Below, piece by piece: positions 41,701 to 44,322 of a stretch of 64,000 bases of DNA. A program made the position numbers and the translations under genes. The number at the start of each line of letters is the position of its first letter. The stretch's first letter is position 1. The notes beneath the pieces are model-generated. The model searched no databases, had not been told where the DNA came from, and worked only from the letters and a program-made list of their open reading frames with translations. Location: the NCBI GenBank assembly GCA_964505265.1, contig CAZDGN010000006.1, forward strand, positions 24,214 to 88,213. Reading direction: 5' to 3'. The stretch comes from an uncultured Rickettsia sp. (lineage in GTDB: Bacteria > Pseudomonadota > Alphaproteobacteria > Rickettsiales > UBA1997).

Positions 41701-44322
41701 ATGCAACCACTTCCTGCCATTGAAGATTCACCTAAAATCGAGAGTCATGAGGGATATTCAACTAGCAATATACCAGATTTTAAAACTTCAGATCATATTG
41801 TTTTTGTTTTAACTGGTCAGGAAAATCATCCAGAATCTTTTTTGAAGAATTTTAAACAGCATTATCAAAATCAATATGATGGTAAAAAATTAGTTTTTCT
41901 TCATAGTACAGGTCTTCACTGGACCACTTATGAATGCGATTATAAATATGAATCCGATACAGAACCTGTTATTACAAGGCACGAAATTAGAGGGGATGGT
42001 AGATGTGGATTGCATGCCGTTGCCAAGGCTTTAGCTATAGTTGGAGGAAAAAATGACTTGGTCGAGGAAGAAAAGTTGCATGGTACAACGCATTTTCAGG
42101 TTCCTGATGGGTTTGATATATTTGTTCATTTAGGTTTAAATCAGGCTAATTTAGCTAATATAAAGATTGAGGCAAAGAAGGATAAAGAAAGAATTGTTGA
42201 ACCAGAAACCAACCTAGCAAAAAGAATTGATGAATTGAATGCCCAATCCAGACCTGAAGATTGGCTTTCTAGTGAGGATATAGAAAATATTTTACTTAAA
42301 ACCAGCATTCGCTCAAAAAGTGGTGAAATGATTTGTGTAGCTTCTCAAAAAGAACCTTTCAATATCTTGCCGGGAGGAAAAGAAAAAGGATGGGATGTCG
42401 AAATTTTATCAATTATTTACGATGATAAATATTGGCAAAAAGATAGATGCACAAAATCTTTTGAAAGCTTTCCTGCAGAGAAAGGGGCATATTTTACAGC
42501 TCTTTTATCATCTTCTACAACAAGAAATGATGCTTTAAGTAATCAGTTAGATAGATTTAAGGGATTTAGATATTCCAAAAATGATGGGGGTATAATTAAA
42601 ATAACTTCAGATATTAATAAATTTAATTGTATTGATACTTTACAGGAAAAAGAAAAATTCTGTCAATTTGTTTTTGAAAATATTGGTTCTTCATGGCTTG
42701 ACGATGAAGTAAAAAAATCAATACACCAAACCTTGATGTTTTTGAAGATTAGTAATATGCTTAGTGGGAATTTACAGAGTGATAAGAATATATACTCTCC
42801 TTGTATTTCTGCAGAAGATCGAATTGCAAGAAATGATTTATATGATGAGCTTCTTAAATTCTATCCTTTAAGTGGCCAGCCCGAAAAAATTGATGACTCA
42901 AAAAAATCTATGATTAATAGTTTTTTGAGGCAGGCATTTACCGATGGGATTGAAATGAAATCAGGTAGCAAAATTAAAATTTCTGATGATGGGGCAGTAA
43001 GAATTAAAGGCGGAAAAACAGAAGAATGTATAATTAATAAAATTAATTCCGTAAATTTTGGAGATTGCAATAAAGAAAAATTAAAATCAAGAATGTTTCT
43101 TGAATTAACTTATGGAGATGGCGAAACTAAGGTGGTAAAAGTTAATTCGGAAAAACCAGATGTTGTGTTTGAAGAAATTGAATTTCGAAATACTTCGCCT
43201 AAGTTAGCTTTATATTCTGAATATGTTAGATATGCCGAGGAAAATAAAGGGGAAGAATCCGATTTTTTTTCGTTACAACCACAAAAATTTAAAGGATATG
43301 GTTTAAAAATTAAGTTAGATAATAATAAATTGTATTTTGAGGAATGTTTTAACGAGAGTTATAAAGGCAAATTTGCTGGAAAAGAAAATAAAAAAATTAC
43401 TAAAATTAATGGTGAAAATTTGCAAACACATTTAACAAGAGCTAAAACTTTAGGTATAGAGCCAAAATATTATATTAACTCATTATTTCGAGCGCAAGAT
43501 TCAGATATAAAGCTTACTTTTGATGATGGTGCTGATGTAGATTTGATAGGGGGAAATAAGCAGACTTTTGAAAAGAATGAAAACGGCTCATATCTTGTTT
43601 CAAAAGAAGTTATCGATATTGAAGAAAAGAAAAGAGAAATAGATGAATTGATGATTAGCAAAAATGAAAAAAAGAAAAGATTTGCCGACCAGACTCAAAA
43701 AGATTTAATGCAGAATGCTTCAAGGGCAATTAATGGGATTGATGAGGTAATGGCTTCTTTAACATCAAATCCTAAATTCAACCTAATAACTAATTCAAAT
43801 CATTTTGATTGGTGGTTTGTTAATGATTTTAATAATGAAAATGCTACAGGTGGAGAATGCAAATATTCTGCAGAAGATAAAAAATCATTACTTGGAAACA
43901 AGGATTATCTTAATAATTCACTCGATCTAGCTAATGCATATTTTAATCAGCTTTTAAAGACTCCTCGGGATGAGAATATATATGGAATAAGGTTAATCAA
44001 AATTTATAATTACTTAACAATTTTGCAAGATAACAAACAAAATGAAACAAGTTCTTTGTTTAAAAGCGATAAAGAATTGGATGATAAACTTGAAATAGCT
44101 ATAAAAAATCTTGAACATGCAATTGAAAAAAAATATAAGAATGATGGTGGTGATAAGGGTGTTTTAGACCATAATGGACTAACGAAAAATGTGAATAATC
44201 TAATTGTTCCAGAGGCTAGGAATAATGGATATCATAATATATTAAAAGAACGGGCAATACCAAGTTCATCTCCAAGTGCAGCTGGATCTGATAAATCGAG
44301 GGGTAGTGAAGTTGGTATGTAG
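41701..44322 (+). CDS. 873-aa orphan protein with OTU-like cysteine protease motifs; candidate secreted effector
   Basis: LHSTGLHW (H73), IRGDGRCGLHAVA (D99/C102), DWLSSEDI; no signal peptide; Ser/Pro tail. ORF is secure, function is inferred. Confidence 0.7.
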   Translation: MQPLPAIEDSPKIESHEGYSTSNIPDFKTSDHIVFVLTGQENHPESFLKNFKQHYQNQYDGKKLVFLHSTGLHWTTYECDYKYESDTEPVITRHEIRGDGRCGLHAVAKALAIVGGKNDLVEEEKLHGTTHFQVPDGFDIFVHLGLNQANLANIKIEAKKDKERIVEPETNLAKRIDELNAQSRPEDWLSSEDIENILLKTSIRSKSGEMICVASQKEPFNILPGGKEKGWDVEILSIIYDDKYWQKDRCTKSFESFPAEKGAYFTALLSSSTTRNDALSNQLDRFKGFRYSKNDGGIIKITSDINKFNCIDTLQEKEKFCQFVFENIGSSWLDDEVKKSIHQTLMFLKISNMLSGNLQSDKNIYSPCISAEDRIARNDLYDELLKFYPLSGQPEKIDDSKKSMINSFLRQAFTDGIEMKSGSKIKISDDGAVRIKGGKTEECIINKINSVNFGDCNKEKLKSRMFLELTYGDGETKVVKVNSEKPDVVFEEIEFRNTSPKLALYSEYVRYAEENKGEESDFFSLQPQKFKGYGLKIKLDNNKLYFEECFNESYKGKFAGKENKKITKINGENLQTHLTRAKTLGIEPKYYINSLFRAQDSDIKLTFDDGADVDLIGGNKQTFEKNENGSYLVSKEVIDIEEKKREIDELMISKNEKKKRFADQTQKDLMQNASRAINGIDEVMASLTSNPKFNLITNSNHFDWWFVNDFNNENATGGECKYSAEDKKSLLGNKDYLNNSLDLANAYFNQLLKTPRDENIYGIRLIKIYNYLTILQDNKQNETSSLFKSDKELDDKLEIAIKNLEHAIEKKYKNDGGDKGVLDHNGLTKNVNNLIVPEARNNGYHNILKERAIPSSSPSAAGSDKSRGSEVGM

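Follow-up and report, generated by a model that had tools for sequence, protein, structure and literature searches.

The question raised by this locus is what an orphan protein of 873 amino acids (aa), encoded on a contig of an uncultured Rickettsia sp. (assembly GCA_964505265.1, contig CAZDGN010000006.1, positions 24,214 to 88,213), could be used for by a member of the Rickettsiales. In what follows, the window designates the whole stretch of 64,000 nucleotides that was analysed. An earlier note on this DNA had proposed that the N-terminal part of the protein is a divergent or circularly permuted OTU-like deubiquitinase, delivered as an effector into a eukaryotic host. From our analysis, the protein is a credible new candidate deubiquitinase-type effector, with a predicted fold and a putative activity. 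The reading that we favor, at somewhat less than even confidence, is that of a new and very small family of papain-fold Cys-His isopeptidases, in which an OTU-type Cys loop, a His-Trp gatekeeper, a new lobe order and a fusion with a PDZ-like domain are combined in a fast-diversifying secreted effector. The gene is the following:

41701..44322, plus strand: single long open reading frame (ORF), gene of the 873-aa orphan multidomain protein

The motifs on which this reading is built were located in the N-terminal domain. The strings quoted in the earlier note (GLHW, IRGDGRCGLHAVAKAL, LHGTTHF and DWLSSEDI) were recovered with correct numbering from the translation of 41701..44322, and the codons were checked in the DNA for H73-W74 (41917-41922, cac tgg), C102 (42004-42006, tgt) and W188 (42262-42264, tgg). 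The elements of the domain are:

41782..42375, plus strand: N-terminal predicted papain-like Cys-His hydrolase domain, residues ~28-225 (AlphaFold2 model and conservation; in 12/12 family members)
41887..41940, plus strand: His hairpin 'KLVFLHSTGLHWTTYECD', residues 63-80, with the proposed base H73 (41917-41919) and the proposed aromatic gatekeeper W74 (41920-41922)
41974..42045, plus strand: strand β4, Cys loop and Cys helix 'TRHEIRGDGRCGLHAVAKALAIVG', residues 92-115, with the proposed nucleophile C102 (42004-42006) and D99 in the loop
42256..42297, plus strand: aromatic helix 'EDWLSSEDIENILL', residues 186-199, with W188 (42262-42264), candidate second clamp of the Gly-Gly tail

About a dozen relatives were found in total, every one from Rickettsiales or an alphaproteobacterial metagenome, the closest being labelled by NCBI as Rickettsiales metagenome-assembled genomes (MAGs). 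A word-indexed search of 5.8 billion proteins returned five relatives, annotated as "hypothetical protein" or unnamed; the full-length relatives of the 873-aa protein are P0002-P0006, with P0004 being a partial protein. A HMMER profile search with the N-terminal domain against 1.84 billion cluster representatives added two members (P0008 and P0009), while P0007 was rejected as a repetitive artefact of that search. Among GTDB species genomes, the family was present in just 2 Rickettsiales MAGs, and JGI metagenome contigs provided six further loci, two of which (L013 and L014) are new and distant. Pfam scans of six relatives yielded sub-threshold noise only (Sulfatase, zf-MYND, VirK).

Conservation was then read from alignment A7, which holds 12 N-terminal domains with identities down to 19-25%. 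Residues H73, W74, I96, G100, C102, L104, A110, L189 and I194 were invariant (12/12), T75, H94, G98, D99 (Asn once, D in 11/12) and G103 were nearly so, and the only invariant His, Trp and Cys across the 12 relatives were H73, W74 and C102. Within the N-terminal ~570 residues, the best-conserved segment was 61-120 in every pairwise comparison. The residue at His+2 was Thr in 11/12 and Ile in 1/12, and H68 is replaced by Tyr in two relatives; H127 and H143 were not conserved, nor were C79 and D80 outside the closest relatives. H131, put forward in the earlier note as a second candidate His, proved variable (H/Y/Q/A...) among the 12 relatives, and both H131 and H143 were rejected as catalytic His since neither is conserved. 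Conservation thus leaves the upstream H73 as the sole partner for C102. With one candidate nucleophile (C102) and one base (H73, 29 residues upstream), the catalytic order would be His before Cys, as had been suspected. The resemblance of W188 to the conserved Trp helix of OTUs stood only in part: the helix is predicted and its L189 and I194 are invariant, but position 188 itself is Trp in 10/12 and Tyr in 2/12, i.e., aromatic and not invariant. As judged from this alignment, the motifs of the N-terminal domain are more than chance.

An AlphaFold2 model of residues 1-235 (m06d25db518b3) was confident, with a predicted local distance difference test score (pLDDT) of 83.6 and a predicted template-modelling score (pTM) of 0.84. 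It starts with β1 (32-38), α1 (44-55), β2 (63-69), a 4-residue turn and β3 (74-80), goes on with an 11-residue loop, β4 (92-94/96), a 5-residue Gly-rich loop and helix 102-115, and ends with a β-hairpin (122-133) followed by helices to residue 222; inside the aromatic segment 186-199, a helix was predicted at 191-199. In this model, helix 102-115 opens with C102, and H73 stands immediately ahead of β3, which is the classic papain-superfamily placement of both residues as far as the prediction goes. Because the hairpin connection suggests that β3 and β4 pair antiparallel, the end of β4 and the loop that follows would, if they do, adjoin H73, and C102 would probably lie close to H73.

These positions suggest how the enzyme might work. 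Residues ~1-225 would form a papain-superfamily cysteine hydrolase, with C102 at the N-terminus of its helix as nucleophile and H73 at the start of the neighboring β-strand as general base. W74 and the aromatic residue at 188 would clamp a Gly-Gly tail, making the domain a ubiquitin or ubiquitin-like (Ubl) isopeptidase. The third member of the triad would not be of the OTU type: either the enzyme would use a Cys-His dyad, or E95 or H94 on the neighboring strand, a CE-type position, would take this role. Indeed, OTU-like deubiquitinases are often Cys-His dyads (PMC10318531). The PDZ-like domain and the variable C-terminal modules would bind the substrate or target, a VirB-type (rvh) type IV secretion system (T4SS) would export the protein into another cell without a Sec signal, and an arms race in the target cell would drive its rapid diversification. 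What we infer in this scheme is that C102 and H73 are close to each other, that the enzyme is specific for Gly-Gly, that it is secreted, and which cell it targets. Regarding specificity, an aromatic residue that immediately follows the catalytic His makes contact with ubiquitin Gly75, and a His-[FYW] motif is 477-fold enriched in Gly-Gly-specific deubiquitinases and Ubl proteases relative to other cysteine proteases (PMC7391069). Because of this enrichment, the invariant H73-W74 pair is the strongest single argument for a ubiquitin/Ubl-type specificity.

The Cys loop was found to be OTU-like, as the earlier note had stated. It consists of a strand, G-D-G-x-C at the helix start and x-x-H-A-V, and HHalign placed exactly that stretch on the OTU Cys motif (scores below). 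The segment 'VITRHEIRGDGRCGLHAVA' agrees with what defines an OTU Cys loop, with strand 92-94/96, helix 102-115 and the invariant G100 and C102, and H73-W74, conserved in 12/12 and directly ahead of strand 74-80, agrees with what defines the OTU His loop; D99 of the Cys loop is not the A20-type acidic position. By eye, 'VFLHSTGLHWTTY' resembles 'NLLHSGQTHFDAL' of vOTU, and 'VITRHEI-RGDGRC-GLHAVA' follows the OTU pattern of a strand, D-G-x-C and x-x-[RH]-[AS]-h (compare 'FTAIRKTKGDGNCFYRAL' of OTUB2 and 'HKVPDDNSCLFHAIA' of Otu1). In the same way, 'LVFLHSTGLHWTTY' fits the OTU His loop, both that of vOTU and that of OTUB1 ('VYLLYRPGHYDILY'), as well as the C48 motif ('LVPIHLGVHWSLVV' in SENP). 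Such readings by eye are a lead and not a test.

Circularly permuted OTU folds have precedents. In a canonical OTU, the His strand is the last element, the strand before the Cys is the first, and the termini are adjacent (PMC7396840). Joining these termini would give exactly the hairpin found here, i.e., His strand, turn, strand, GDGxC and helix. EschOTU of Escherichia albertii (PDB 6W9S) is an active, circularly permuted OTU deubiquitinase with an H-aromatic-N...C order in its crystal structure (Schubert et al. 2020, PMC7396840), and a vOTU that was permuted by engineering keeps its activity (PMC7396840). The family described here resembles EschOTU in its His-aromatic...Cys order via closed OTU termini, in its pared-down OTU core, in a conserved Trp that would secure the Gly-Gly tail and in being a bacterial effector candidate. 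It differs from EschOTU in having Thr/Ile at His+2, where EschOTU has N264, and in the order H73, C102, W188 with 29 residues from His to Cys, whereas in EschOTU W214 lies ahead of H262 and the Cys comes farther down the chain than here. In addition, EschOTU is found by an OTU profile (E 4.7e-5) and the present family is not.

A second precedent is the EmcB family (Coxiella burnetii EmcB, CoxDUB and LegDUB), which comprises 34 proteins, 33 of them in Legionellales, that have no sequence identity to OTUs and are active permuted OTU deubiquitinases built from a His strand, a loop and a C-terminal Cys helix (PMC12501173). Compared, like EschOTU, by description, our family shares with EmcB a catalytic His strand tied by a short loop to the Cys helix, the lack of detectable sequence identity to OTUs, a modular build with an accessory binding domain after the deubiquitinase domain, and the likeness to T4SS-associated effectors with an unstructured C-terminal tail. 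However, the Cys helix ends the domain in EmcB, whereas here a hairpin and a ~100-residue helical lobe (about 110 domain residues) follow it; EmcB has Asn/Glu at His+2 instead of Thr/Ile; and EmcB is almost confined to Legionellales (Dot/Icm) while the present family occurs in Rickettsiales MAGs (VirB-type). Besides, the profile search of the 1.84 billion representatives, which returned only the family's own members and one repetitive artefact, gave no EmcB-type link.

The CE clan (Ulp1-like) accommodates these motifs about as well as OTU does. Clans CA and CE are regarded as permuted versions of one fold (PMC7396840, PMC10318531). With CE enzymes (Ulp1/SENP, the SdeA deubiquitinase, ChlaDUB, RickCE, OtDUB; PF02902) the family shares the His-before-Cys order, a β-α-β unit followed by a 'hhhxHxxxHW' hairpin, a Cys followed by Gly and a 'WL(N/S/D)xxxI' helix. 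Weak Foldseek matches of the N-terminal model likewise included several CE-clan effectors in which the His precedes the Cys, namely PopP2, Lem17 and SseL (E 0.08-0.4, template-modelling score at most 0.26). An acid may also sit on the strand adjoining the His strand, which would reproduce the CE order His, acid, Cys, but E95, the candidate on the strand that comes next to the His hairpin in the chain, is kept in 9/12 only. CE enzymes carry the WLND helix on the N-terminal side of the sheet, whereas here the 'WL[SND]xxxI' helix (188-199) lies C-terminal to the Cys helix. Similarly, 35-50 residues with a helical insert and the oxyanion Gln separate the Asp strand from the Cys in CE enzymes, in contrast to 6 residues between β4 and C102 and no Gln here. 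A greedy HHalign run in CE order placed WLSSEDI on the C48 'WLNDxxI', HW on HW and E95 opposite Ulp1 D531, with a score that was not significant and with the flaw that the family's Cys helix fell on a non-catalytic CE helix.

Just one Pfam family was hit by more than one member: Peptidase_C33 (arterivirus PLP2, an OTU-fold deubiquitinase), on the Cys loop of two members and far below the gathering score (12-13 bits vs 25, E 0.13-0.21). Like the present family, PLP2 enzymes have Cys-Gly after a D-G-x motif, a compact domain and a short Cys-His spacing. This compact OTU-fold deubiquitinase (MEROPS C33, PF05412), although the only recurrent, weak Pfam match, has the canonical Cys-before-His order, the reverse of that of the present family. 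Elsewhere, the order is Cys...Trp...His in canonical OTUs and Trp...His...Cys in EschOTU and CE enzymes, and the Cys helix comes last in EmcB. The lobe order described here, i.e., His sheet, Cys helix and helical lobe with the aromatic helix, differs from all of them and matches no described topology.

Downstream of the catalytic domain, a second module and a distinct tail were delineated:

43282..43605, plus strand: PDZ-like domain, residues ~528-635 (AlphaFold2 and Foldseek; invariant 'G-x-G-L-K-I' at the expected carboxylate-binding loop)
44233..44319, plus strand: Pro/Ser/Gly/Ala-rich C-terminal tail, residues ~845-873 (composition)

In an AlphaFold2 model of residues 436-690 (m86034c7ecc57), the flanks were poor and the core (~528-635) reached pLDDT 70-92. 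A Foldseek search of the PDB with this middle module gave 50 listed matches, nearly all of them PDZ domains or PDZ-containing proteases (E 1e-3 to 0.25), including CtpB (4c2c, E 1.2e-3, prob 1.00), CtpA, the D1 C-terminal processing protease, DegP/DegQ and syntenin. 'GYGLKI' is invariant where the carboxylate-binding loop is expected, and the distant L013/L014 have 'FKGWGLEIKF' in the same place. The module had no Pfam PDZ match and would therefore be a divergent PDZ-like domain. Pairwise comparison found the N-terminal domain in all members, the middle module in most, and the C-terminal module of the window protein in common to P0002-P0004. The conserved core architecture is thus the Cys-His domain plus the PDZ-like domain. 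An alternative C-terminal module ('HVWGANVDNFN ... GGGQA ... GI(I/F)GIVTT'), which has no Pfam match, was observed in P0006 (518-684), P0009 (667-904) and the C-termini of L013/L014. Most full-length relatives have a similar tail with a net charge of 0 to +2, even with a different C-terminal domain, and the tail of P0008 fits less; this tail is possibly a secretion signal.

The evolution of the locus was then examined by comparing the window with L001/L002, L003 and L007. The gene begins 3 nt downstream of the short-chain dehydrogenase (SDR) stop codon and ends 22 nt before tonB, the first gene of tonB-exbB-exbD, and in three other genomes it lies at the same site, between the SDR gene and tonB. 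Identity of the 873-aa protein to its counterparts in these genomes was 74%, 46% and 45%, whereas the flanking proteins were mostly 92-100% identical, with a few, e.g., SurA, at 80-88%. Between the window and the closest genome, the non-synonymous divergence (dN) of the gene was 0.150 against 0.000-0.098 for its neighbors, the synonymous divergence (dS) was 0.164 against 0.03-1.2, and dN/dS was 0.92 against 0.00-0.15 for 14 neighboring genes. Between the two closest alleles, dN/dS was about 0.8 for the N-terminal domain, as against 1.4 for the linker and 4.6 for the PDZ-like domain, this last value involving few synonymous changes in a segment picked after the fact. Alleles were also mosaic, as illustrated by P0002 and P0004, which are 27-68% identical over 1-570 and 90-95% over 600-750, and P0006, encoded at this very locus, carries another C-terminal module. 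Such hypervariability and mosaicism is the signature of a protein in conflict (effectors, surface antigens, polymorphic toxins). Since the ORFs are intact and the catalytic motifs invariant, the pattern is not that of a housekeeping enzyme or a decaying pseudogene. Along 37738-53913, dS relative to L001 was uneven, being 0.03-0.28 from MDH and tmk through the target gene, tonB-exbBD and aspartokinase, and 0.67-1.2 for PBP, SurA, the chorismate-binding enzyme, FtsW and VirB8/9; this unevenness points to a recombination block that was exchanged recently around the target gene.

A route of export is suggested by one feature of the window:

52394-53913: VirB8 and VirB9 (CagX) gene pair, directly upstream of panC (53922-54743) and away from other T4SS genes

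This pair lies 8 kb from the 873-aa gene and is found in the same arrangement in the relatives' loci, which fits the scattered layout of the rvh-type T4SS in Rickettsiales. The 873-aa protein has no predicted transmembrane segment or signal peptide. That the lineage has a eukaryotic host, which the earlier note took to be implied, does not follow. Indeed, basal Rickettsiales with predicted extracellular lifestyles have the same secretion system, and its use against other bacteria was proposed (PMC11077975). A eukaryotic host is plausible but not implied.

Several results weigh against the isopeptidase reading. At the level of sequence, neither Pfam nor NCBIfam matched the 873-aa protein at E values up to 10, and the PDB sequences, searched by phmmer and with two profiles, returned nothing relevant. 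Profiles were built from PDB-verified reference alignments of OTU (OTUB1/2, vOTU, Otu1, OTUD1/3/4/5) and of the CE clan (Ulp1, SENP1/2/8, adenain, SdeA). From the PDB, the OTU profile recovered OTUD5, OTUD3, OTUB1/2, vOTUs, wMelOTU and EschOTU, and the CE profile recovered SENPs, Ulp1, adenain, SdeA, ChlaDUB, OtDUB, RickCE and XopD. When the family was compared with these profiles by HHalign, only residues ~87-110 aligned on the OTU Cys motif (E 0.013-0.016, probability 3%), and only the β-α-β-HW region on the CE His motif (E 0.05-0.07, probability 1%), neither being significant. Reordering the blocks to the OTU order (cut at 88) or to the CE order (cut at 168) brought no gain in score, local or global. 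Among individual residues, Thr/Ile stands at His+2 where OTUs have Asp/Asn/Glu, I96 and R97 occupy positions -6/-5 of C102 where CE enzymes have the oxyanion Gln/Asn, and E95 is replaced by S, P or A in the relatives that lack it.

At the level of structure, the input alignment of the N-terminal model contained only 6 sequences. A Foldseek search with this model against the PDB gave nothing significant (best E 0.06) and no OTU among the 50 matches listed; against the viral structures of BFVD, the same model had no significant match. This outcome is unexpected for a well-modelled papain fold, even permuted. The null result speaks against the protein simply belonging to any family with a solved structure, with the caveat that Foldseek aligns in sequence order, so circular permutations are penalized. 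The His-aromatic motif, for its part, is also kept by CE acetyltransferases (PMC7391069), and export through the T4SS, plausible as it is, is deduced from gene context. Because for each of OTU, CE and EmcB some defining features were looked for and not found, formal membership of any of the three is not established, and the working analogy with permuted OTU/CE deubiquitinases stands. As for the divergent or permuted OTU effector initially proposed, the OTU-like Cys loop, the His-before-Cys order and the permuted precedents speak for it, whereas the lack of a significant match and the Thr/Ile at His+2 speak against it.

Among the alternatives, we regard as unlikely that the protein is a papain-like cysteine protease with another job than on ubiquitin or Ubl, namely PDZ-recruited target cutting like that of bacterial protease-PDZ pairs, self-processing that releases the C-terminal modules, or a role as the toxic or processing portion of an interbacterial T4SS effector in a free-living basal member of the Rickettsiales. 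The architecture of a Cys protease with a PDZ-like domain is kept in the family, and its C-terminal modules are swapped at one locus with mosaic alleles, like those of polymorphic effectors. Compared with classical Rickettsiaceae, the window has a richer metabolic gene content, with enolase, IMPDH, aspartokinase and panC besides a chorismate-binding enzyme, in line with this alternative. Basal Rickettsiales were moreover proposed to kill microbes by the rvh T4SS (PMC11077975). However, the invariant His-Trp and the second conserved aromatic are strongly tied to Gly-Gly-specific proteases, and no immunity-like gene was found downstream, where tonB follows at once. A polymorphic toxin with an immunity gene was rejected for this lack of a candidate. 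A periplasmic PDZ-protease was rejected as well: the PDZ fold matches are periplasmic proteases, yet the protein carries neither signal peptide nor transmembrane segment.

It appears improbable to us that the protein is not a hydrolase at all, with the Cys, His and aromatics having structural or binding roles in a non-papain fold, e.g., an aromatic-cage reader of the YTH/PUA type, and with coincidental motifs. The highest Foldseek probability was indeed that of a YTH domain (6zot, prob 0.75, E 0.064), no protease gave a significant sequence or fold match, and the gene-wide dN/dS is near 1. Nevertheless, identity as a YTH domain was rejected, the template-modelling (TM) score being only 0.20-0.29. 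Three separate protease motifs also have the secondary-structure setting that a protease would require (Cys opening a helix behind a Gly-rich loop, His-aromatic at a strand start, second aromatic in a helix), and the motif residues are the most conserved in an otherwise fast-evolving protein.

In YopJ enzymes, the His-Cys spacing is about 60 residues. A CE-clan-like acetyltransferase of the YopJ type, whose His/Cys pair would move acetyl from acetyl-CoA to a target Ser/Thr/Lys, is very improbable: it would account for the His-before-Cys order, for the CE-like HW motif, whose aromatic CE acetyltransferases retain (PMC7391069), and for weak top Foldseek matches to the YopJ-family acetyltransferases PopP2 and Lem17, the latter with inositol hexakisphosphate (IP6), but the Foldseek matches are not significant (E 0.08-0.5; TM 0.2-0.26; root-mean-square deviation ~15 A), the spacing of 29 residues leaves no room for regulatory/IP6-binding insertions, the Cys loop is OTU-like and not 'Q...(S/D)CG', and Pfam YopJ (PF03421) had no match.

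Deubiquitinases of bacteria both mark and serve the manipulation of eukaryotes, and the rewiring of the papain superfamily can be read from their folds. The permuted OTUs described so far are one E. albertii protein and those of Legionellales. If the isopeptidase reading is true, a third and differently permuted family, in Rickettsiales, would make such rewiring recurrent and provide a natural test case for the proposed CA-CE clan link, as well as a candidate effector for environmental Rickettsiales with a debated lifestyle (free-living bacterial killer or eukaryote associate). If ubiquitin is the target, this would be direct genomic evidence that the lineage exploits eukaryotic cells; if bacterial ubiquitin-like conjugates are, a new kind of interbacterial or anti-defence effector would emerge. 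The full novelty of the case, i.e., an independent circular permutation that would be the third after EschOTU/CE and EmcB, a CA-CE intermediate that joins an OTU-type Cys loop to CE-type features, delivery by the rvh T4SS of an environmental and metabolically rich lineage, and a PDZ-like module under positive selection all together, seems rather doubtful to us. The contrast at the locus, between near-identical neighbors and 45-74% identical, mosaic and domain-swapped alleles, is in any case a convenient marker of an ongoing molecular arms race.

Finally, some minor observations were made around the gene and its relatives. In L013 (4866-5195, minus strand) and L014 (132-440, minus strand), a small Ser/Thr/Pro-rich ORF lies divergently ahead of the family gene, with 'GDTTM' motifs common to both; this ORF, beside members of 910 and 906 aa, may be a conserved partner gene and is absent from the window. 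The window has ~31% G+C and encodes ordinary housekeeping genes. A promoter/terminator scan stayed at chance level, with 0 terminator-like sites in 40700-46300 and none parting the 873-aa gene from its neighbors. Just upstream of the gene, the ORFs of thymidylate kinase (40296-41063, minus strand) and SDR (40864-41697, plus strand) overlap by 200 nt via upstream TTG starts; their orthologues have 206 and 240 aa, which places the real starts probably near 40916 (minus strand) and 40975 (plus strand). Four more ORFs of 319-552 aa in the window have no Pfam match (35070-36728, minus strand; 31720-32976, minus strand; 24972-25931, plus strand; 61560-62600, minus strand), and the one of 552 aa is kept in related genomes with 80-84% identity and a dN/dS of about 0.09.

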